From the NCBI GenBank assembly GCA_964572065.1, contig CAZNER010000036.1, positions 7,289 through 20,067 of the forward strand: DNA of 12,779 bases, read 5' to 3'. The notes beneath the pieces were generated by a model. That model searched no databases. It had not been told where the DNA came from and saw nothing but the letters and a program-made list of their open reading frames with translations. Positions 1,003-12,779 of this stretch are shown piece after piece. Numbering within the stretch: the stretch's first letter is position 1; the number at the start of each line of letters is the position of its first letter. A program made the position numbers and the translations under genes. Origin of the DNA: an uncultured Candidatus Saccharibacteria bacterium (lineage in GTDB: Bacteria; Patescibacteriota; Dojkabacteria; JAHIVN01).

Positions 1003-1033
1003 AAAGAGAAAGGGTTTATAGCCCTTTTCTCTT
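1003..1033. other. imperfect inverted repeat (stem-loop) spanning the stop codon of the flotillin-like gene
   Basis: aagagaaaggg-tttata-gcccttttctctt forms a stem of about 11 bp with one bulge. On the plus strand it is followed by a T-rich run. On the minus strand, where the genes actually lie, it is followed by UAAGGUG, which is not U-rich. Terminator function is therefore doubtful. Confidence 0.3.
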
Positions 1034-2560
1034 ATTTTTATTTACTTTTCTCTGCATCTGTTCTATCTTATCTTTAGTTGTCTCTAGCTCTTTCATTTTT
1101 TCTATTTGAGTTTTCTCTTTCTTGGGTTGTTCCTTTGGTTTAGATTTGCTCTTTGGTTTTCTAGTTGGTTTGGGTTGCTCTTCTTGCATCTCCTTACCAA
1201 TTGATAACCCCTCAACAAATCCTAAATCGTTAGGCTTTGCTTTATTATGTAAGATAGCTTGTGCTGTATCAGGTGAACTCACATTAATACCCTCTATAAG
1301 TTTTCCCATATCAAAACCATCTCTAGCTCCATTACCTGCAAACACTCTCATGTCAGCATATTGTAGAGCCTCTGCTAAAGCTTTACCAACTTCAAGATCT
1401 TTGTTGACTAACAATTCAGCTATTAATGCTCTAATTGCATTATCATCAAATTTATTAAGAGCTTCTTGTAAGTCTTCTTTACCCTCTGCTTCTGCTTGGA
1501 GCTTCTTCAAGATAATCTCAGCTTCTGCTGTACCTGTTTCTCTTATGGGTGCAGCTTTTCCTATAGCTTTTTCTTGCTCTCTGATTTTATCTCCTTCTCC
1601 TTCTAGACGTTTTTGTTCTTTATTAATTGCTTCAACATCCTTTCTCTGTTCAGCATTTATTTTAGCTACAACTTTTTGTTGCTCCGCTAAAACTCTAGCT
1701 TTTTCTTTCTCAATCTCTTGGTTTTTAACTTTATCTACTTTAGTTACCTCAAGTTGTTCTGCTAGAGCAGCTTTTTCTTTCTCTGCTATGAGCTTATCTT
1801 TCTGTTGTTGTCTCTTAGCTACTTCTTCATCTCTTTCTATCTCTCGTTTTTGAGCAGATTCATCAGCTATTGCTTCCTTTAATCGAGCCATTTTCTTTTG
1901 CTCTGCATTTTTCTGTCTAGCTTCAGAGTTAATCTGTTCTTCTATAATTGAAGAAATATCAGATATAACATGAGATTCTTCTGTGTCCTTAAATTCAACC
2001 AATTCAATATCCTTGAGAACTAATCCCCAGTTGGTTATTGCTGACTGTAGAGGTTCTATGATTTCTTTAATGATTCCTTCTCGATCATTAATAATCTCTC
2101 TTACAGTTTTCTTGGTTGTTGAATCCCTAGTTGTTGCCTGAACAACTTTAGATACTTGCTCTGATAGTTCTTTCATGTCACCATTAAATCTTCGTGCAGC
2201 AACTACAGGATCTGTAATAGCTACATAAGCCATGATGTCACATAAGAACCTAGCTCTGTCTATATCAAATGCTTTGAAATCTGTAACATCTATTGGTAAG
2301 ATTTCCAGAGGCATTGGATGTACATGCATACCTATTCCAGGTATAAATCCAGGAATTTTAAAGTATGCGGCTTTTCCACCTGAAGAGTATTCTCCTTCAC
2401 CACTATGTTTTTTGTCTGAGCAAAATACTCTTGTCTTTCTACTTTGTACCACTACGTCAGCATAATTTGCTGGTGCAATCTTATACATACTAAATAAGAT
2501 TAATAAAAAACCAGCTATTATGGCAACAATTAATAGTGGCCATATTAGTATTTCTATCAT
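1016..2560 (-). CDS. flotillin-like SPFH/band-7 domain membrane protein (YqiK/FloT-like), 514 aa
   Basis: An N-terminal TM helix (IWPLLIVAIIAGFLLILFSMY) is followed by an SPFH-like core. After that comes a long region of E/A/K/Q heptad coiled coil (AEQKK..AKRQQQKDKLIAEKEKAALAEQ..) typical of flotillins. Next is a glycine-rich MRVFAGNGARDGFDMGKL segment, and the protein ends in a lysine-rich basic tail. Confidence 0.85.
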   Translation of the reverse strand: MIEILIWPLLIVAIIAGFLLILFSMYKIAPANYADVVVQSRKTRVFCSDKKHSGEGEYSSGGKAAYFKIPGFIPGIGMHVHPMPLEILPIDVTDFKAFDIDRARFLCDIMAYVAITDPVVAARRFNGDMKELSEQVSKVVQATTRDSTTKKTVREIINDREGIIKEIIEPLQSAITNWGLVLKDIELVEFKDTEESHVISDISSIIEEQINSEARQKNAEQKKMARLKEAIADESAQKREIERDEEVAKRQQQKDKLIAEKEKAALAEQLEVTKVDKVKNQEIEKEKARVLAEQQKVVAKINAEQRKDVEAINKEQKRLEGEGDKIREQEKAIGKAAPIRETGTAEAEIILKKLQAEAEGKEDLQEALNKFDDNAIRALIAELLVNKDLEVGKALAEALQYADMRVFAGNGARDGFDMGKLIEGINVSSPDTAQAILHNKAKPNDLGFVEGLSIGKEMQEEQPKPTRKPKSKSKPKEQPKKEKTQIEKMKELETTKDKIEQMQRKVNKNKRKGL

Positions 2561-2585
2561 TTTTTCTTTCTCCTATATTTTTTTT

Positions 2586-2813
2586 TTATTCTTTTTCTCT
2601 TGCACTTAATCTTATAGAACCATCATATATTTTGTTGGTTACCATTTGATTAAGTATTTTGGTTATAAGTCCATCTTCAGTTTTGACATATATATTCTTA
2701 CCATTGTCGATGTCCTTATATGCTTGCTCCATGTCTTCAATCGACTTGAAGACTATTTTATCTCCAGCTGTCTTCTCACCGAGAGACAACTCTTCTACAC
2801 TATATACTTCCAT
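2586..2813 (-). CDS. hypothetical protein (75 aa)
   Basis: Complete ORF immediately 5' of the flotillin-like gene. AGGAGAAA lies upstream of the flotillin start. No motifs. Confidence 0.5.
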   Translation of the reverse strand: MEVYSVEELSLGEKTAGDKIVFKSIEDMEQAYKDIDNGKNIYVKTEDGLITKILNQMVTNKIYDGSIRLSAREKE

Positions 2814-2815
2814 AA

Positions 2816-3022
2816 TTAATTTCTCCTTTTACCTGTTATTACATTTATTACTTCTATTGGTTTTTCCTTCATATATACATTACAATCATTCTTTAAACGT
2901 ATATTTGTTTTATTTCCAGATTTATTATTATATGTATAATTCTCTATAGACACTATATAGTTTATATTAATTATATCACTGTCTTCATTCTCTGTTATTA
3001 AAAAGTTCTTTACTTTCTTCAT
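2816..3022 (-). CDS. hypothetical protein (68 aa)
   Basis: Complete ORF. Its stop lies 2 nt upstream of the next start. Confidence 0.45.
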   Translation of the reverse strand: MKKVKNFLITENEDSDIININYIVSIENYTYNNKSGNKTNIRLKNDCNVYMKEKPIEVINVITGKRRN

Positions 3023-3035
3023 AAGATTTTCACTC

Positions 3036-3431
3036 CTATAAATCCCTTATCATTTTTGATTCTAATACGAAATCGTAATCCTTAGTAATATTTAATTCAA
3101 ATATGAACCTATCATCTTCATAAGATTGAACATTCTTTAATCTTTCTAGAATGATATTACAATCAAAGTCTTTTAAGTTCCCATAGTAAGATGCTCGGTA
3201 TCTAGTTCCATATTGATCAACTACATATTTGAATTTCATACCATCACACATTTGTAATACTTGTTGGACAAATGGATAGTATACATCTATTGAGCCTTTA
3301 TATATATTAAAGTGTATACCACCTAGAGTTTTACCATCATCTGTTTTAAATACACTACCCCATATAGTTACTTGATATTCTTCATTCTCTTGTTTATCAG
3401 TTAATCTTATCTCTCCAACTTTCTTTCTCAT
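3036..3431 (-). CDS. hypothetical protein (131 aa)
   Basis: Complete ORF, tightly packed against its neighbours. Confidence 0.6.
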   Translation of the reverse strand: MRKKVGEIRLTDKQENEEYQVTIWGSVFKTDDGKTLGGIHFNIYKGSIDVYYPFVQQVLQMCDGMKFKYVVDQYGTRYRASYYGNLKDFDCNIILERLKNVQSYEDDRFIFELNITKDYDFVLESKMIRDL

Positions 3432-3432
3432 A

Positions 3433-3765
3433 TTATAATCCTTCTATAAAGAAATCCTCATTATAATTCTCGATTATTCCCTTCATTATTTTAAAATGAT
3501 TTAGATAACAAGATTTATGTATAGCAAATACTTGAGGTAAAGTTATTATTTCTCCTTCATTATTTTTATCAGGCATTACTACTCTTAATATAAATGATAA
3601 ATTAGTTTCATCTGACATAACATCTTCAATTGTCATTAATTCTCCACAGATACCACAATATCTTTCATATCCTTCATCAGTTTTAATTTTATTTGCTCGT
3701 ATTATTTCAGGAAAATTCTGTCGTATACATGTATTTTTATTATATCCCTTTTTATTTATTTTCAT
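3433..3765 (-). CDS. hypothetical protein (110 aa), possible distant member of the small-paralog array
   Basis: Its N-terminus MKINKKGY and first 25 nt or so (ATGAAAATAAATAAAAAGGGATAT) resemble the MKFKKGDY starts of the array genes. The start overlaps the upstream stop as ATGA. An internal CGICGE motif is present. Confidence 0.6.
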   Translation of the reverse strand: MKINKKGYNKNTCIRQNFPEIIRANKIKTDEGYERYCGICGELMTIEDVMSDETNLSFILRVVMPDKNNEGEIITLPQVFAIHKSCYLNHFKIMKGIIENYNEDFFIEGL

Positions 3766-4058
3766 AGCATATCCAACATAAGCTCTTCTAGTTCCTCTTC
3801 AGGAACTTTTTCATCTAACATAAAAGCTTCAGGTCTAAACTCTTCTCCAAATACCATAAAATCTATATCCTTTTCTCCAGGAAATTTTTTACTCAAACCA
3901 ACATTTAAATATTTAACGGTTGCTGTTCTATATACACCATCTTCATATATAGTTGGTCTATTATAATTGTAATTTAATATGATATAATATAAAGCCTCAT
4001 GTTTATGATTTCTATCATATCTTCTTCTAATCTCACCAACTTTAGGCCAGTCTCTCAT
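3762..4058 (-). CDS. hypothetical protein (98 aa), array-related C-terminus
   Basis: Ends in EEELEELMLDML, which is related to the EEAMVELL ends of the array genes. ATGA overlaps are present at both ends. Confidence 0.6.
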   Translation of the reverse strand: MRDWPKVGEIRRRYDRNHKHEALYYIILNYNYNRPTIYEDGVYRTATVKYLNVGLSKKFPGEKDIDFMVFGEEFRPEAFMLDEKVPEEELEELMLDML

Positions 4059-4273
4059 AATAACTCTACCATAGCTTCTTCCTTTGTTATTTTCTCAAGA
4101 TTCCAATGTGTTTGTTTAAGAGCAGAATAATGTGAACCTTCATAACCATTTTCAGAAAATAATATTTCTATTTCATAATCTTCTCCTTTCTGTTCCACTA
4201 CTTTAACAATTTCAACTACATTTTTATACTCTTTACTAGTAGCTTTTATATAATCTCCAACTTGAAACTTCAT
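4055..4273 (-). CDS. small paralog-family protein A (72 aa)
   Basis: Starts MKFQVGDY and ends KEEAMVELL. ATGA overlaps are present at both ends. Confidence 0.65.
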   Translation of the reverse strand: MKFQVGDYIKATSKEYKNVVEIVKVVEQKGEDYEIEILFSENGYEGSHYSALKQTHWNLEKITKEEAMVELL

Positions 4274-4524
4274 AATAATTCCACCATAGCTTCATCTAAT
4301 GATATTATTTCTGATTCCTTTTCCATTGGACTATTAACCTGAAAATTATCTTCAATACATTCTTTATTATGAGTATAATTTAATTTCCTATATAAATAAA
4401 AGGGTTTCTTAGAAAGTTGCTTTAATTGGAAAGGACTTCTATATATGTCTTTTGGGCTAACTACATCAAATATATATCCAACTAGTTCGTGACATCTAAA
4501 GTAATCTCCCTTTTTAAATTTCAT
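4270..4524 (-). CDS. small paralog-family protein B (84 aa)
   Basis: Starts MKFKKGDY and ends DEAMVELL. Its SD (GGTGGA) lies inside the upstream C-terminal codons. Confidence 0.65.
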   Translation of the reverse strand: MKFKKGDYFRCHELVGYIFDVVSPKDIYRSPFQLKQLSKKPFYLYRKLNYTHNKECIEDNFQVNSPMEKESEIISLDEAMVELL

Positions 4525-4664
4525 AACTCCTCAACCATTACTTCATCATCATCCATTTCCTCTAAATACATACCCTTATTCTCATAATATTTAATTCTAT
4601 AATATTTACTGTTAACAATTACTATATCATTTTCTCTACCAATAATAGTCCCATTTCTATACAT
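4521..4664 (-). CDS. truncated paralog-family member C' (47 aa), found by hand
   Basis: Translation is MYRNGTIIGRENDIVIVNSKYYRIKYYENKGMYLEEMDDDEVMVEEL*. The start overlaps the upstream stop as TAATG, and the stop overlaps the downstream start as ATGA. It keeps the C-terminal motif but lacks the N-terminal GDY module. Confidence 0.4.
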   Translation of the reverse strand: MYRNGTIIGRENDIVIVNSKYYRIKYYENKGMYLEEMDDDEVMVEEL

Positions 4665-4885
4665 TATAATAATTCCACCATTAATTCATCCTTAGTTAAT
4701 TTTTCAACTTGTTCTTCCCAACAATGTATTTGGATATATTTATTATATATTGGAGCTAATATTAATTGATCAGGTAATACATCTTTACATATAATTTCAC
4801 ATATAGTTCCCTTTTTAACTGTTACATTATCTCTTATATTAGCTACTGAATATTTTAATCTTCTATATTTATTTATATCCTTCAT
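4664..4885 (-). CDS. small paralog-family protein D (73 aa)
   Basis: Ends KDELMVELL. The N-terminus is divergent (MKDINKYRR). Confidence 0.6.
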   Translation of the reverse strand: MKDINKYRRLKYSVANIRDNVTVKKGTICEIICKDVLPDQLILAPIYNKYIQIHCWEEQVEKLTKDELMVELL

Positions 4886-5124
4886 AGTAATCCTATCATA
4901 ACTTCATCCTTAGTAACTAATTTAACTTTCTCCTTGCTTGGTTCATAGAAACAAAAATCTTGTCTATAAACATTAGATATATTAAGGTGCTTACATATAT
5001 ACATCTTATAACCATATCTTTTATAAATAATATTTTCAACTATAACAAATAACCTTTTACCTATTTCACTTTGAAATCCATCCATATCTATAATCTCTAA
5101 ATAATCTCCAACTTTATACTTCAA
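4882..5124 (-). CDS. small paralog-family protein E (80 aa), apparent TTG start
   Basis: Starts with TTG-AAG-TAT (read as MKYKVGDY) and ends KDEVMIGLL. The TTG overlaps the upstream TGA as TTGA, a degenerate form of the ATGA junction. Confidence 0.55.
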   Translation of the reverse strand: MKYKVGDYLEIIDMDGFQSEIGKRLFVIVENIIYKRYGYKMYICKHLNISNVYRQDFCFYEPSKEKVKLVTKDEVMIGLL

Positions 5125-5348
5125 AGTAACTCCACCATAGCCTCCTCTTTACTTAGTTTCTTTAAACCTCTATTATCATATATCTCTACAGATCCTGATG
5201 CTTCACCAGTTATATATAATACAGTATAAGGATATTCATGGTTATGAACTATCTCCTTTATTATACCTATATTACCTATTTGATTTTTTAGATATACATA
5301 ATCGTAATGTTTAACTATTTTTACGTAATCTCCCTTTTTAAATTTCAT
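5121..5348 (-). CDS. small paralog-family protein F (75 aa)
   Basis: Starts MKFKKGDYVKIVK and ends KEEAMVELL. Confidence 0.65.
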   Translation of the reverse strand: MKFKKGDYVKIVKHYDYVYLKNQIGNIGIIKEIVHNHEYPYTVLYITGEASGSVEIYDNRGLKKLSKEEAMVELL

Positions 5349-5506
5349 AATAAATATACCATCAATTCATCTTCGTTTAATGGACCTATTATATCTAGTT
5401 CTAATACAGCATCAGGACTAACTACTATTTTGTAACCATGTATTTTATCATCGTATTTCTTAACATACATACCTATAGCATCCATATAAGGTAAATCTTG
5501 ATACAT
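5345..5506 (-). CDS. truncated paralog-family member G' (53 aa), found by hand
   Basis: Translation is MYQDLPYMDAIGMYVKKYDDKIHGYKIVVSPDAVLELDIIGPLNEDELMVYLL*. Its stop overlaps the ATG of the 5121..5348 gene as ATGA. It is the first gene of the array, after a 79-bp gap. Confidence 0.4.
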   Translation of the reverse strand: MYQDLPYMDAIGMYVKKYDDKIHGYKIVVSPDAVLELDIIGPLNEDELMVYLL

Positions 5507-5585
5507 AGTTAATTTAAATACCCCTATACCATCAGAATAATACCATTCATCTTAATCTAAATTTGATAATATATTTAGAGATTTA

Positions 5586-6179
5586 TTAATGTATTTTAAA
5601 TTTGATGTCTCCTTTTCCTTCATAACACCACATACAATCATTACATTTTATAGAATTACCCTTACCCTTAGTACATTCTCTAATCTTTGAGACATCATCT
5701 TTATGATTACCTATCTTATTTTTACCATCATCTATTACATAAGCTTTTAATCCCGTTTCAGGTACACCCTTACTATCTGGCCATATTGTCCAATACCTTA
5801 CTGTATTATCAGGTAAATTGCTCCAGTCTAAATCATACATCTGAGTATATATTAAGAACTTCTTTTCAGGAAATTTATTACATATCTTTATCCACTTATT
5901 AAGATACTCTTGACTATAGAAATCTCCTGATTCATGTATCCTTATATATTCAGATTTAATTTTGCTTATCTTCTCTGTAGCTTTTTTAACAAATGATTTC
6001 TTTTTAGTATCTTCATAGTTTCTTCTTCTACTAGGTAATACTTGCTTATAACACATCTCAGCTTTTTTAGCGTAACAATATTTCTCACAGTTATCAGTTC
6101 TACCAGGACAAGTTTGAACTGCTGGTAAACTGAATGTTGGGATATTCATTCTTATATTGCCAGGACTTATATATACCAT
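5586..6179 (-). CDS. Cys-rich hypothetical protein (197 aa), possible metal/Fe-S binding
   Basis: The N-terminus carries a C-x6-C-x3-C-Y-A cluster (TCPGRTDNCEKYCYAKK), and the C-terminus carries a second cluster (C..CNDCMWC). An RIHESGDF segment is also present. There is a weak resemblance to the three-Cys N-terminal motif of phage Gp37/Gp68 (DUF5131)-type proteins. This is not confirmable without a search. Confidence 0.6.
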   Translation of the reverse strand: MVYISPGNIRMNIPTFSLPAVQTCPGRTDNCEKYCYAKKAEMCYKQVLPSRRRNYEDTKKKSFVKKATEKISKIKSEYIRIHESGDFYSQEYLNKWIKICNKFPEKKFLIYTQMYDLDWSNLPDNTVRYWTIWPDSKGVPETGLKAYVIDDGKNKIGNHKDDVSKIRECTKGKGNSIKCNDCMWCYEGKGDIKFKIH

Positions 6180-6185
6180 ATAATA

Positions 6186-6317
6186 TTACTCCTCATATTC
6201 ATTCATTTCCTTTACTAACTTTTTACATTTCTCACTAACTACCTGAGATAATGCAAGGAATTCAATTGGTTTTAATTCTTCTATTATCTCATTCCAATAG
6301 TGTTTATTCCTTTTCAT
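6186..6317 (-). CDS. possible small ORF (43 aa), found by hand
   Basis: Translation is MKRNKHYWNEIIEELKPIEFLALSQVVSEKCKKLVKEMNEYEE*. It fills the gap between the 6304..6633 and 5586..6179 genes, and its start is nested in the last codons of the upstream gene. Confidence 0.2.
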   Translation of the reverse strand: MKRNKHYWNEIIEELKPIEFLALSQVVSEKCKKLVKEMNEYEE

Positions 6318-6633
6318 TATGTATTCCCTCCATCATATCTAATTCTGCTTTACCTTGCATTACTATAAGGAAAACTTTAAGATACAAATCTAATTTAACT
6401 TTATATTTCTTATGAACCTTTTCTATTATCTTAATATAATCTGGTTCTATCCCTCTATGTATTAAACTATCAGCTCTCTTCTTTACTTCTTCTATTAAAA
6501 GTTTATCATAATTCATTACATCATTCTGTAATTTCTCTATAGCTGAAGGCATATCATCGTAGTTAAGTAATTGTTTAACTTTCTTATTAGTATCTCTAAT
6601 TATATTATTTTTATCCTTCATACTAACTACCAT
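6304..6633 (-). CDS. hypothetical protein (109 aa)
   Basis: Complete ORF. A second in-frame ATG at 6621 lies just after the upstream stop. Confidence 0.55.
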   Translation of the reverse strand: MVVSMKDKNNIIRDTNKKVKQLLNYDDMPSAIEKLQNDVMNYDKLLIEEVKKRADSLIHRGIEPDYIKIIEKVHKKYKVKLDLYLKVFLIVMQGKAELDMMEGIHNEKE

Positions 6634-7153: not shown

Positions 7154-7534
7154 TCACCCTAATATTTTCTCTATTAAATTTAGTCTTTTAATTGGTTTTA
7201 AATCTCTAGCAAACGCTACTTTACTTGATTCCTTTATTAAACAGTCATATTTCTTCATGGGGATAACCTTTATATTAACTGATCTATCTACAAAACATAT
7301 TTTTCCATTACTTATATTAGATTGCATTTTATATTTACCATTCTCTTGTTTAACTTTATTGAAATATAATACCTCTCTCTTATGTTTATTTGTTAATCCA
7401 TCATGAACTTCCTTATGACATTTATCACATAGGGGTATTAATTTATTCTTCAAAGGTTTCAAATGTTTAGGTATTGCATGATGTTTCTGTACCTTATTTT
7501 CACTACCACATCTCCAACATTTAGCTTTAACCAT
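7154..7534 (-). CDS. HNH endonuclease (126 aa)
   Basis: The N-terminal CWRCGS ... HHAIPKH ... N ... LCDKCHKEVH forms a canonical HNH/zinc motif. Confidence 0.8.
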   Translation of the reverse strand: MVKAKCWRCGSENKVQKHHAIPKHLKPLKNKLIPLCDKCHKEVHDGLTNKHKREVLYFNKVKQENGKYKMQSNISNGKICFVDRSVNIKVIPMKKYDCLIKESSKVAFARDLKPIKRLNLIEKILG

Positions 7535-9607: not shown

Positions 9608-9849
9608 TATATCACATCTCCAAAGCAATACTCAAAGAAACTAACTTTATGATTTATTTTCATACCTTCATAGAAATCACTATAATGTTTTGGTTGCTCT
9701 TCCATTAACTTTGCTGGATTATCTTTATATTTATTATAAAATTCAACAGCTGATTTGACATCGTTTTTAGTAAAATAAATGTGATTATCAATTGGGTCAT
9801 CTTCATCTACTCTTTCATCTATAATTTTCTCTCTTAAAGGTTCACACAT
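9607..9849 (-). CDS. hypothetical protein (80 aa)
   Basis: Complete ORF that overlaps the 3' end of the methyltransferase gene by 16 nt. Confidence 0.55.
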   Translation of the reverse strand: MCEPLREKIIDERVDEDDPIDNHIYFTKNDVKSAVEFYNKYKDNPAKLMEEQPKHYSDFYEGMKINHKVSFFEYCFGDVI

Positions 9850-11339
9850 AATTTCTCTCCTATAGCTTTTATTACATTCACCGTAACAGCATTACCTAAT
9901 TGTCGATATCTTTGTGTATCAGATATTAATATATCAGGTAGATTTCCTATTACAGTTTTCTTTATACCATAATCTTTCATAATTTTCTTACAATGTTCAC
10001 AACAATAATAATGTCCAATAAGATGCAGGGTTCCACCTTTAGCATTCTTACCAGCTTTCTTACAAGCTGAGACTTCTGCATGTTCTACTTGTCCACATAT
10101 CTCTTTACAGAGTTCGTAGCCTGTACCCGTCTTAAAACCAATCCTCGGGCATTTCTGTTGTGGTGTTAGACATTCATTGTAACCAAACCAATACTTACCA
10201 TTATTCTCTATGATAGCAACAACTGTTTGTTTAACACATCTTCCCTTAAAATTCATAATTGGGGTTCCATACTTAGTCCAATCATCTGGGAATCCTTGAA
10301 GTCTTTCACATTCAACGGGAGTTAATCTTCTTAGTTTATCATATTGATTACAGATATCCCAAGAGTGTCTATCTACGCTACTTCTTCCACCACTCCTTAC
10401 TGTCTTGGATATTATAACTCCATCTCTATCTTGGTTATTTAAAGTAAAGGTTGCTTCATCAGGCTCTTTAACCCATCTACCTTCTTGTCTTGGTTTTCTA
10501 TCGGGTGTCTTTACTGATCTAGCTACACCTTGATTCATACCAACATCAAGACAATAAGCTTCGTCTTCCTTACCTATAGTTCCATAACCACCAGGATAGG
10601 ATTTACCCTCTTCTCTAGCTTTAACCATACAAGGTCTATCTAATCCTCTCTTTTGTGTATTCATAACTATAGGTACATTGTGTCCACCTGTTCCCATATT
10701 TTGGGTTAAGGTTGGACTACCTTCATGTTCTCTTATTTCATTTGCTCTATGGGCTTTGTATGTTTTTCCTTTAGATACTTCTTGAATCTTTCTTGCATCT
10801 TCTCTGAAAGGTAATACTTGCTGTCTACTTCCTCCTCTAAGATATCCGATAATGAAGACACGTTCTCGGTTCTGGGGTACTCCGAAAAATTTGCTGTTAA
10901 GTACCATCCATTCAACTCTATACCCCAATTCATCCAACGTTTGAAGGATGACTTTGAAAGTTTCCCCTTGTTTGTGATTGAGTAACCCCTTGACGTTTTC
11001 AAGGAATACAATCTTAGGTTTTTTAGCTTTAATAATTCTTGCAATTTCAAAAAAGAGAGTTCCTCGGGTATCTTTAAAACCTCTCCGGTGTCCAGCAATT
11101 GAGAATGCTTGACAAGGAAATCCTCCACAGAGCATATCAAAGTCTGGTATTTCTTCTGGTTTGATTTTTGTGATATCTGTTGGTTCATAACATTCACCAT
11201 AATTTTTATTATATACTGATACTGCATACTTATCTATGTCACAGTACCATACAAATTTATATTTATCCGATGCTTCTTGTAGTCCCTTACGGAATCCACC
11301 TATACCACCAAATAAATCTGCTACTCTTATCTCATCCAT
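9834..11339 (-). CDS. DNA (cytosine-5)-methyltransferase with an inserted dCMP/cytidine-deaminase-like zinc domain (501 aa)
   Basis: The C5-MTase motifs are all present: I FGGIGG (residues 10-15), IV GFPCQAFS (catalytic C76), VI ENV (113-115), VIII QNRERVF (156-162), IX RRLTPVECERLQGFPDDW (337-354) and X QLGNAVTVNVIKAIG (480-494). Between motifs IX and X, at residues 366-465 (nt 9945-10244), sits VVAIIENNGKYWFGYNEC..C..C..CGQVEHAEVSAC..GGTLHLIGHYYCCEHCKKIMKDYGIKKTVIG. This matches the ComEB/dCMP-deaminase pattern GYNG ... HAE ... PCxxC ... GIKKVVY. Confidence 0.9.
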   Translation of the reverse strand: MDEIRVADLFGGIGGFRKGLQEASDKYKFVWYCDIDKYAVSVYNKNYGECYEPTDITKIKPEEIPDFDMLCGGFPCQAFSIAGHRRGFKDTRGTLFFEIARIIKAKKPKIVFLENVKGLLNHKQGETFKVILQTLDELGYRVEWMVLNSKFFGVPQNRERVFIIGYLRGGSRQQVLPFREDARKIQEVSKGKTYKAHRANEIREHEGSPTLTQNMGTGGHNVPIVMNTQKRGLDRPCMVKAREEGKSYPGGYGTIGKEDEAYCLDVGMNQGVARSVKTPDRKPRQEGRWVKEPDEATFTLNNQDRDGVIISKTVRSGGRSSVDRHSWDICNQYDKLRRLTPVECERLQGFPDDWTKYGTPIMNFKGRCVKQTVVAIIENNGKYWFGYNECLTPQQKCPRIGFKTGTGYELCKEICGQVEHAEVSACKKAGKNAKGGTLHLIGHYYCCEHCKKIMKDYGIKKTVIGNLPDILISDTQRYRQLGNAVTVNVIKAIGEKLCVNL

Positions 11340-12548: not shown

Positions 12549-12553
12549 ACTAA

Positions 12554-12627
12554 TGGCGAGGGTTGGATTTGAACCAACGTACCACGGGTTATGAACCCAT
12601 TGCCTGTTTCCTCTAGACTACCTCGCT
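12554..12627 (-). tRNA. tRNA-Met (anticodon CAU), with some initiator-like features
   Basis: The cloverleaf was read from the reverse complement. The acceptor stem is AGCGAGG/CCTCGCC, with A1 and C72 unpaired. The D stem is GTCT/AGGC. The anticodon stem is ATGGG/CCCGT, with three consecutive G-C pairs, and the anticodon loop is TTCATAA. The variable loop is GGTAC. The T arm is GTTGG-TTCAAAT-CCAAC. The discriminator is A, and CCA is not encoded. Confidence 0.8.
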
Positions 12628-12779
12628 ATCTCTTAAATTTTTTTCAAAGGTTTTAATTTCATCATTAATTAATATTGCCATAAATATTTTTTCTTTTTCA
12701 TAATCTATAACATGATAGATATATTTTATATTAATTGTTACCATCTAATAATCCCTTACTATATTACAAATAACTAAGC

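Follow-up and report, generated by a model that had tools for sequence, protein, structure and literature searches.

The window analyzed here (the whole stretch of 12,779 bp, positions 7,289–20,067 of the contig CAZNER010000036.1 in the assembly GCA_964572065.1) belongs to the accessory part of the genome of an AT-rich phage that has not been cultivated; the source contig is 135 kb long. On its minus strand, it contains an array of small genes, most of whose products end in a similar short peptide, hereinafter referred to as the tail. It was found that about a quarter of the open reading frames (ORFs) in the clade of related phages carry this tail, and at least 20 groups of predicted proteins with no detectable similarity outside the tail share it. 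Analysis of codon use suggests that the tail is conserved mainly as a peptide and that a Shine–Dalgarno (SD) site for the following gene is superimposed on it through the choice of synonymous codons. With some reservation, the locus is probably a composite: a tandemly duplicated, fast-diverging run of small genes, a peptide tail with the SD overlay, the occurrence of this tail across the clade, and the gain and loss of single cassettes at the gene junctions.

Array of Small Genes

The array consists of eight consecutive ORFs (positions 5506–3762, minus strand) with start-on-stop overlaps, in agreement with a preliminary description of this DNA. Together with the next ORF, it forms a row of nine consecutive minus-strand ORFs, from 5506 down to 3433, of 53, 75, 80, 73, 47, 84, 72, 98 and 110 aa:

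5345–5506, minus strand: array member 1, 53 aa in the window, tail NEDELMVYLL, without the MKFKKGDY N-terminus
5121–5348, minus strand: array member 2, 75 aa, MKFKKGDYV...LSKEEAMVELL, structure modelled
4882–5124, minus strand: array member 3, 80 aa, TTG start in a TTGA overlap, (L/M)KYKVGDYL...VTKDEVMIGLL
4664–4885, minus strand: array member 4, 73 aa, MKDINKYRRLKY...LTKDELMVELL
4521–4664, minus strand: array member 5, 47 aa, tail DDDEVMVEEL, entered via a TAATG junction
4270–4524, minus strand: array member 6, 84 aa, MKFKKGDYF...ISLDEAMVELL (P0002)
4055–4273, minus strand: array member 7, 72 aa, MKFQVGDYI...ITKEEAMVELL (P0003)
3762–4058, minus strand: array member 8, 98 aa, N-terminus MRDWPKVGEIRR, degenerate tail EELMLDML
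3433–3765, minus strand: 110-aa ORF, CxxC...HxSC zinc-finger-like, ends in EDFFIEGL, linked to the array by ATGA

The preliminary description ascribed a common C-terminus and a common N-terminus, MK(F/Y)K(K/V)GDY, to the ORFs of this row. The former holds for seven array ORFs, which end in [DE]-E-h-M-[VI]-x-[LE]-L (h, hydrophobic residue). It does not extend to the 98-aa ORF with its degenerate ending, which is a probable distant family member, or to the 110-aa ORF, which encodes a zinc-finger-like protein outside the paralog family. The N-terminus MK[FY][KQ][KV]GDY was found in only four of the nine ORFs (75, 80, 84 and 72 aa) and not in the other five. The middle parts are highly divergent, as had been described: among the alignable members, pairwise identity was 79% for the first 8 residues, 62–65% for the last 11 residues and 16–17% for the core, i.e., the paralog cores are saturated.

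Two ORFs had been regarded as truncated to the C-terminal module, and neither case was confirmed. The 47-aa ORF (4521–4664) has its own beta-rich N-terminal half. The 53-aa ORF (5345–5506) is cut to this length by a TAA codon at 5552–5554 (minus strand), while AAA is found at this position in three other assemblies of the same phage, L001, L002 and L009 (contigs compared with the window are numbered in this way), which gives an open frame of 98 codons. This codon is the sole difference in the array region between the window and the other assemblies. The 98-codon frame, the start of which is only tentatively placed, would overlap the GP88 gene by 38–56 nt.

An ortholog of the 73-aa member was found in the contig L007 (1508–1729) at a different genome position, beside a gene encoding 382 aa. 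A protein similar to that of the 110-aa ORF is encoded in L012 (3562–3819); it is a zinc-finger protein with the tail IMVDNL.

Distribution of the Tail in Related Phages

Relatives were found via the neighboring Band_7 and 374-aa genes (L007 and L010), an exhaustive HMMER search and degenerate DNA patterns. All of them are AT-rich metagenomic contigs, up to 145 kb long, from a small number of samples. In the first three related loci, the strict tail was found in 19 of 120 ORFs versus 0.06 expected from the frequency of the pattern inside proteins (0.0005 per position; P ~ 5 × 10^-42). In larger pools, the tail was present in 44 of 160 ORFs (distinct ORFs from six related loci, pattern M-[VIML]-x-x-[LI]-COOH) and in 83 of 323 ORFs. 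In the 160-ORF pool, it was carried by 36 of the 71 ORFs of 60–100 aa and by none of the 36 ORFs of at least 150 aa. Residues outside the search pattern were conserved among the 44 tails as well, namely D/E at position −8 (42/44), E at −7 (30/44), a hydrophobic residue at −6 (35/44) and K at −9 (19/44).

When the tails were trimmed, the 44 proteins formed 26 BLAST clusters, with C4 and SWIM zinc fingers, all-alpha proteins, and families of 131 aa and 142 aa among them. Thus, the tail is not specific to the paralog family; the same ending is found in zinc-finger, SWIM, all-alpha and other proteins. Two genes outside the family carry such tails in the window itself:

3036–3431, minus strand: 131-aa gene, tail SKMIRDL, borders arrays here and in L007, L015 and L021
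12375–12548, minus strand: 57-aa C4 zinc-finger-like gene, tail RRMIEEL, GAGGAG serves the abutting next gene, no detectable similarity to the family

In the window, the 131-aa gene is found downstream of the array, but in L007, L015 and L021 it is upstream of one; in L010, its likely 116-aa counterpart is located among tail-like genes.

The AT-rich Staphylococcus phage Twort (29–32% GC, many small overlapping genes), the staphylococcal host of which uses SD sites, served as a control. The tail was found in 0 of 154 Twort ORFs, and the idea that it simply arises in any AT-rich genome with SD sites inside its genes was rejected on this basis. A search of 596 Gb of bacterial and archaeal genomes with a pattern for KDE[AV]MVELL followed by a stop codon gave zero matches. 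A sliding-clamp motif was considered as well. The proliferating cell nuclear antigen-interacting peptide (PIP) has the form Qxx[LIM]xx[FYW][FYW] at the C-terminus, and the resemblance of the tail to this PIP box is limited to the hydrophobic spacing (−5, −2, −1). The conserved Gln and the two aromatic residues (positions 7–8) are absent, the tail has the above D/E at −8 and ends in L/x-L at −2/−1, and this candidate was rejected.

The contig L016, which belongs to the same phage and lies a few kb upstream of the window, contains a second cluster of tail genes (2–2546) that ends at the 374-aa gene and includes three more members of the barrel family (see below) and a SWIM zinc-finger protein. 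Because of this second cluster, the family is considered to be dispersed in at least two arrays per genome. In L010 (4746–5712), the tails I-V-A-M-L-L and I-V-A-M-A-L occur, in which Met has moved by two positions, and ATAGTGGCGATG, which contains the very rare codons GCG and GTG, is identical in two L010 genes that show no evident similarity. Another paralog family, with the N-terminus M(I/M)(D)LNPNCSE..., is present in 2–3 copies in L012 (175–994), L020 (8543–9447) and L024 (6645–8189); its genes are interleaved with tail-bearing ones and are located directly upstream of a radical SAM enzyme gene (PF04055).

Selection on the Tail

The synonymous test was performed with the amino acids of the array members fixed and the codons redrawn from the phage's own usage. 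Nucleotide identity over the last 11 codons was 0.658 versus the expected 0.641 ± 0.018 (P = 0.19), and codon identity at tail positions with the same amino acid was 0.60 versus 0.48 (P = 0.06). The N-terminal codons behaved similarly (0.764 versus 0.714, P = 0.06). Conservation extending to synonymous positions, as had been proposed, is therefore not supported. The preliminary description also held that the peptide motif was really a nucleotide cassette, an interpretation that was to fail if junction identity did not exceed that expected from the amino acids; as the synonymous sites are not conserved beyond expectation, it is largely refuted. For the same lack of excess synonymous identity, concerted evolution and gene conversion were rejected as causes of the likeness of the junctions.

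In the 160-ORF pool, codon use at tail positions other than −4, −3 and the last one corresponded to the genome background. Substitutions within the tail keep the class of the residue rather than the bases (A/L/V/I at −6, D/E at −8, and TTA/CTA/CTT for Leu). In 107.5 kb, 66 copies of the DNA word ATGGTNGA were counted versus 10.8 expected; 49 of them are in the frame and position of the tail, and only 3 are intergenic. Eleven tail-bearing genes are followed by a gap of 1–101 nt, several of these gaps holding the next gene's own SD site, and where the junction is TAATG, the tail remains at the end of the protein and not at a fixed distance from the restart codon. ATGA overlaps are also found in 33 genes without the tail. 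Across divergent homologs of the family, the tail LTKDE[AV]MVELL is retained while the barrel core varies. The absence of excess synonymous identity, the conservation of residue class, the tails followed by gaps and the confinement of ATGGTNGA to the tail frame allow us to conclude that the tail has been selected mainly as a peptide.

Gene Junctions and SD Elements

The junctions comprise six ATGA overlaps, one TTGA overlap (with the TTG start) and one TAATG, all three types having been noted earlier; the junction between the 110-aa and 131-aa genes is TAATATG. A repeat search revealed a six-copy direct repeat at the junctions, 42–51 nt long and 63–84% identical, with a spacing of 143–251 nt. 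The repeat and the SD-like elements are located as follows:

4247–4297, minus strand: reference copy of the 51-nt junction repeat, comprising tail codons, ATGA and first codons
4498–4548, 4641–4691, 4859–4909, 5098–5148 and 5322–5372: other copies of the junction repeat, with a 42-nt version at 4055–4096
5130–5136, minus strand: SD-like element GGTGGAG, codons −5 to −3 of the 75-aa gene, before the TTG start at 5124
4674–4679, minus strand: GGTGGA in the tail of the 73-aa gene, 10 nt before the ATG at 4664 (TAATG junction)
4280–4285, minus strand: GGTGGA in the tail of the 84-aa gene, 7 nt before the ATG at 4273

A 43-nt sequence that was said to recur at seven junctions gave 0 matches at up to 3 mismatches; it is a composite, from which four junctions differ by 5–9 bases and the rest by 15–26. 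The SD site GGTGGA, claimed to lie 7 nt ahead of the next ATG, was found at three junctions, at this distance or, for the TAATG junction, at 10 nt. The other junctions have the weaker variants GGTATA, ATAGGA, GTTGAGGAG, GGTAGAG and GTTGGAT. The layout is that of a translationally coupled operon, i.e., a stop/start overlap and an SD-like G-rich element 5–10 nt upstream, within the tail of the upstream ORF, and the coupling proposed earlier is consistent with it. Other phage genes carry GGAG, GGTG or GGGTGA at −6 to −12, so the host uses SD sites.

In the 323-ORF pool, GTG was the codon for 22 of the 70 Val residues at tail position −4, versus about 6.5% of Val codons elsewhere (P = 3 × 10^-10). 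In the smaller pools, GTG accounted for 8 of 14 Val codons (first three loci) and 11 of 35 (160 ORFs, 6% background). In the 160-ORF pool, Glu at −3 was encoded by GAG in 12 of 26 cases versus a background of 25%, and the last codon had the form NNA in 36 of 39 Leu cases, as required by the ATGA overlap. The share of GTG was 13 of 41 in coupled tails versus 1 of 7 in tails followed by a gap. The G of the ATG codon for Met, together with the GTG and GAG choices, thus writes a putative SD site GGTG(G)A(G) for the next gene. This site is complementary to CACC(UCC) of the 16S rRNA 3′ end and lies 5–8 nt upstream of the restart codon, which matches the SD distance in free-standing phage genes. GGTG would be the only SD variant that encodes hydrophobic residues in this frame (x-G GTG, Met/Leu-Val), and for this reason a hydrophobic helix and an SD site could share the same bases.

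Other signals were searched for at the junctions. In the region 2500–6500, 24 promoter-like sites were found versus 32.5 ± 5.6 in shuffled sequences, and none of them recurred at junctions. Junction promoters, including the reading of TGgTAGAAT as an extended −10 element, were rejected, since there was no excess of sites and the spacing to the ATG was too short. Folding of eight junctions gave z-scores of −1.9 to +1.3 with differing structures and no conserved RNA fold; a conserved RNA hairpin occluding the restart site was thus not found at these junctions. An internal ribosome-binding site (RBS) in K-D-E-x-M (AAGGATGAAnnnATG, with an MVELL mini-ORF) was also rejected, AAG at −9 being unenriched (8/19 versus a 35% background). 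A 24-nt identity between the 5′ ends of 5121–5348 and 4270–4524 has a chance of about 2% per pair by hand estimate and is not significant over 6 pairs.

A unique strong hairpin (GUUCCUGAAGAGGAAC; z = −3.4 in an 80-nt context) is located at 3790–3807 in the coding region of the 98-aa ORF. It is not repeated at other junctions and scores as terminator-like on the plus strand. In relatives, a second repeated junction, GA(G/A)TGATTGAAATG, was noted in L021 (740–2360) and L027 (reverse complement, 4902–5800), where it recurs at no fewer than five consecutive small genes (at least 5). The upstream gene ends in Glu and a TGA stop, GTGAT serves as the SD site, and the ATG follows 5 nt on. Unlike the tail, this junction looks genuinely nucleotide-level.

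Recombination and Copy Number

The arrays of L012 and L015 are about 98% identical, except that L015 carries an additional member of 79 aa, situated between the 63-aa gene and the 80-aa gene. Using blastn, it was found that a 49-nt segment of L012 (7503–7551) aligns to both flanking junctions of L015, covering the last 13 codons, ATGA and about 10 nt more; the endpoints of the 236-nt indel therefore lie inside the junction repeat. In L012, the junction is mosaic, composed of parts of both L015 junctions, and the adjoining 80-aa gene differs between the two contigs at codons 3, 4 and 10 only, at the crossover. The six-gene arrangement of L012 was present in three independent assemblies. These comparisons support a role of the junctions as recombination substrates, with one cassette gained or lost between close relatives, in line with the earlier suggestion that they could serve as recombination linkers. 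The junction similarity that would permit this is fully explained by peptide conservation.

Copy number varies widely among related genomes, so the array is not a local curiosity, a point that the preliminary description had left to such a comparison. The arrays of relatives differ in size (from runs of 2 to runs of at least 8 tail-bearing genes), content and genome position, and in L007 and L010 no array follows GP88. The orthologs of L012 and L015 are separated by 7 synonymous and 7 non-synonymous differences (dN/dS ~0.22), which fits real genes under purifying selection.

Proteins of the Array

A Pfam scan of the nine ORFs and the 131-aa gene (E ≤ 1) gave no match to KOW (PF00467). DUF3601 (PF12208) was matched by the 80-aa member only, at 20.0 bits (E = 7.9 × 10^-4), below the gathering threshold of 22.3 bits. 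The best PHROGs match of the array ORFs had E = 7 × 10^-4, to families of unknown function and over partial regions only, and the NCBIfam scan of these ORFs returned no family. The family profile had a best E-value of 0.058 against PDB, with a weak match to ribosomal protein L24 (E = 0.69). A word-indexed protein search with the array profile matched only the phage's own proteins. An exhaustive HMMER search against 1.84 billion representatives revealed 15 further proteins of 72–86 aa and one 145-aa tandem-domain protein without the tail (P0019). Some of these homologs, at least, come from this phage or its clade. The 14 tail-bearing proteins (alignment A6) have the form MK[FY]K[KV]GDY...L[TS]KDE[AV]MVELL, and the core of the alignment has a barrel-like pattern, G-x-I-G-x-I-I followed by Y-P-Y-x-V.

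Modeling of the 75-aa member with AlphaFold 2 (AF2) from a 5-sequence alignment gave a mean predicted local distance difference test (pLDDT) score of 80.4 and a predicted template modeling score (pTM) of 0.67. The model supports an SH3/KOW/Tudor-like five-stranded barrel that can be superposed on known members. The first strand is formed by MK[FY]K.GDY[VI], and the C-terminal amphipathic helix, [ST]-K-[DE]-E-h-M-V-E-L-L-COOH, caps the barrel, with residues 67–74 (pLDDT 81–88) packed beside it; an extra helix is predicted at 17–24. The SH3/KOW-like barrel guessed earlier is thus supported by the model for this one member, and not by a KOW sequence match. A BFVD fold search returned only uncharacterized small phage proteins, and the fold occurs so widely that no function can be derived from it. 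Judging by its sequence, the tail itself would begin with a capping box (S/T-x-x-E) and continue as an amphipathic helix of two turns, the two faces of which would carry A/M/L/L and D/E/E, respectively.

Proposed Mechanism and Alternative Explanations

We propose that the genes would form one polycistronic unit with coupled translation, in which ribosomes terminate and then re-initiate at the next start. The array may have arisen by repeated unequal homologous recombination (crossing-over) between junctions, after which the members would have diverged fast on the barrel surface, the N-terminal strand and the C-terminal helix being kept. The barrel proteins could then be diversified binders on a constant base of N-strand and C-helix. 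The tail might be a shared C-terminal docking or address helix that is recognized by one common phage or host partner. We put forward only tentatively the view that [K]-[DE]-E-h-M-V-E-x-L-COOH serves the whole clade as a C-terminal address or docking peptide and that the same bases also hold the restart signal for the gene that follows. If it is correct, the tail would mark dozens of dissimilar small proteins (SH3-like barrels, zinc fingers and all-alpha proteins) for a common fate, for which virion loading, recruitment to a phage or host hub and timed proteolysis are candidates; it would then correspond, at the opposite terminus and on a far larger scale, to the capsid targeting sequence of T4.

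Several observations weigh against the composite description. The SD overlay is lineage-dependent: Val in the L012 and L015 arrays is mostly encoded by GTA or GTT, giving GGTAGA, a poor SD site. ATGA overlaps are much more frequent in genes with the tail than in those without it (39/56 versus 33/170, P = 2 × 10^-11), which fits either a link to coupling or the plain inheritance of the whole junction in tandem duplication. Met at −5, the best-conserved residue, has a single codon, so that constraints on peptide and DNA are inseparable there. Recombination at junctions is represented by one indel between metagenome-assembled contigs. One member was modelled confidently, from five sequences, and the single-sequence AF2 model of the 98-aa ORF had a pLDDT of 50. 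Finally, the main rival explanation is that the tail is a generic structural amphipathic helix capping the protein, and that its recurrence reflects descent of cassettes and dual coding with the SD site, with no shared partner involved. The predicted helix beside the barrel, and the capping box with hydrophobic a/d-like spacing in the alignments, agree with a structural helix, as does the drift of the tail among non-barrel orthologs (e.g., MVLKL, MMYEI and VAMAL); a joint protein and SD constraint would also slow the evolution of the tail. However, such a helix leaves unaccounted for the convergence of C4 and SWIM zinc fingers, all-alpha, 131-aa and 142-aa proteins on the ending [DE]E-h-M-V-E-x-L, the preference for Met over the equally hydrophobic Leu or Ile, and the position of the motif at the exact C-terminus in about a quarter of ORFs despite its rarity inside proteins. 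The same is true of its absence from all 36 proteins of at least 150 aa and from Twort. The purely structural explanation, like that of an address peptide, can be given limited credence.

The tail could also be a nucleotide junction cassette (RBS, spacer, overlap and recombination linker), with the peptide as a by-product. The GGTGGA site 7 nt before the next start, the enrichment of GTG and GAG, the association with ATGA overlaps and the endpoints of the cassette indel would be expected in this case, and ATG, as the single Met codon at −5, could itself be the constrained entity. Apart from the result of the synonymous test, the background codon use at the other positions and the conservation of residue class, not bases, speak against it. 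Furthermore, positions −8 to −6 are located 15–24 nt upstream of the start, beyond any SD site; the tail keeps to the exact C-terminus when the next gene is 1–101 nt away or the junction is shifted to TAATG; the 33 ATGA-coupled genes do without it; ATGGTNGA is not used in intergenic leaders; and neither a conserved RNA fold nor an excess of promoters at junctions nor such tails in Twort were found. We therefore regard a nucleotide cassette as improbable. Even less credible, and in our opinion very improbable, is a nascent peptide acting in cis, which would delay release or recycling of the ribosome and thereby promote re-initiation at the overlapping ATG. The exact C-terminal position regardless of fold, selection at the peptide level, the association with ATGA and the presence of an initiator-type tRNA-Met gene in the same region are compatible with it, but 11 tails precede non-overlapping genes, some of them 44–101 nt away, and 33 overlaps work without any tail. 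We know of no precedent for such a termination/re-initiation peptide in bacteria, which counts against it as well. The preferred description thus remains the composite one, with the tail conserved mainly at the peptide level.

Genomic Context

The window is 99.97% identical to the 135,213-bp ENA metagenome contig L001, and the array was unchanged in five further assemblies. The overlaps with L001, L002, L003, L004, L008 and L009 are identical except for position 5554 and a cluster at 2921–2928. The substitutions of this cluster (2921, 2926 and 2928, in a 68-aa gene at 2816–3022) set the window apart from L001 and L008. The GC content is 27–31% over most of the window and reaches 39% in the methyltransferase gene (10–11 kb); the GC skew is strongly negative, and all credible genes are located on the minus strand.

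Megablast of the window and tblastn of the 374-aa neighbor and the 75-aa member against 50,697 GenBank phage records gave nothing useful (best tblastn E = 0.05). Two contigs related via GP88 (L005 and L006) were too distant to be informative, and a single MVELL inside a ribbon-helix-helix protein there was considered a coincidence. L019 was discarded as a chance pattern match (40% GC, non-coding frame).

The flanking genes encode a GP88-family protein (PF17338), a flotillin-like Band_7 protein, a C5 methyltransferase, an RlaP nucleotidyltransferase, a metallophosphoesterase, an exonuclease and a Rad51/RecA-like ATPase. Taken together, such genes are characteristic of the part of a large tailed phage genome that holds replication and accessory functions. 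The Band_7/SPFH flotillin-like protein (1016–2560, minus strand, 514 aa) has a long, charged, coiled-coil-like tail and is 77% identical in L007; its gene is always preceded by a conserved 75-aa gene (2586–2813). A 501-aa protein (9834–11339, minus strand; GC 37–39%) has a C5 DNA methyltransferase domain and a weak dCMP/cytidine-deaminase-like match, an unusual pairing. A phage tRNA-Met gene (CAT) at 12553–12628 (minus strand) has initiator-type features as read from its sequence, namely an anticodon stem closed by three G:C pairs (G29-31:C39-41) and an A1.C72 mismatch. It sits amid many genes that restart at overlapping ATGA.

Comparison with Known Systems

Tandem arrays of small coupled phage genes are common, and the locus alone would be ordinary. 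Translational coupling via ATGA or TAATG is a textbook layout. Re-initiation at such overlaps, with the downstream SD site inside the upstream ORF, has been studied, e.g., in PMC2268962. The junctions described here share with it the 4-nt and 1-nt overlaps, the SD-like element 5–10 nt before the restart codon and the synonymous choice that serves the SD site. However, ordinary coupling constrains about 2 codons and fails to explain a tail of 9–11 residues on dissimilar proteins that is also kept without coupling. The tail appears to be a clean natural case of dual coding, in which a peptide motif carries the ribosome-binding site of the next gene by means of synonymous codons.

In the hyperplastic regions of T4-type phages, modular shuffling is mediated by promoter-early stem-loop (PeSL) cassettes, intergenic regulatory units composed of a sigma-70 promoter and a terminator stem-loop (PMC2839356, PMC4122927). 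In both cases, short repeats flank small non-essential genes of unknown function in variable regions, and recombination yields insertions, deletions and replacements, as in the one-cassette indel with endpoints in the 49-nt junction repeat. In contrast to PeSLs, the repeat found here lies in coding sequence, extending from the last ~13 codons of one gene through the overlap into the first ~8 codons of the next, and peptide conservation accounts for the likeness of its copies. Having neither a sigma-70-like promoter nor a terminator stem-loop, the junctions were not assigned to PeSLs. The locus shows that conserved coding gene ends can fill the recombination role of the intergenic cassettes, and junction recombination would provide a mechanism for the expansion, contraction and reshuffling of accessory-gene arrays. 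Gene "accordions" in viruses, such as the amplification of T4 tifA (PMC9391042), are similar in that short homologies recombine and thereby alter how many copies of a small accessory gene are present, but the copies here are old and highly diverged (16–17% core identity) and not recent identical amplifications.

Among known proteins, the modelled member comes closest to small SH3-like, KOW and Tudor barrels, e.g., Spt5/NusG KOW, the C-terminal Tudor domain of PcrA/UvrD and YorP of the Bacillus subtilis prophage SPbeta (PDB 2HEQ). At the sequence level, no membership in a Pfam, PHROG, NCBIfam or PDB family was found, and the model differs in the extra helix 17–24 and the conserved C-terminal helix. 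The barrel fold is common, as is the coupling layout. The clade-wide C-terminal tail is the unexplained element of the locus.

The internal proteins of T-even phages share a conserved capsid targeting sequence (PMC3012670, citing Repoila et al., 1994). In T4, this terminal peptide is an address label, and several of the tagged proteins are anti-restriction factors. The likeness is that highly diverse small proteins have only a short terminal peptide in common. The T4 sequence is N-terminal and is removed by the prohead protease, whereas the tail described here is C-terminal and is found on about 25% of the ORFs, so the likeness is one of analogy only. If the tail is nevertheless an address label, it would pick out a co-targeted effector set from sequence alone, and the peptide would be a handle for the common partner.

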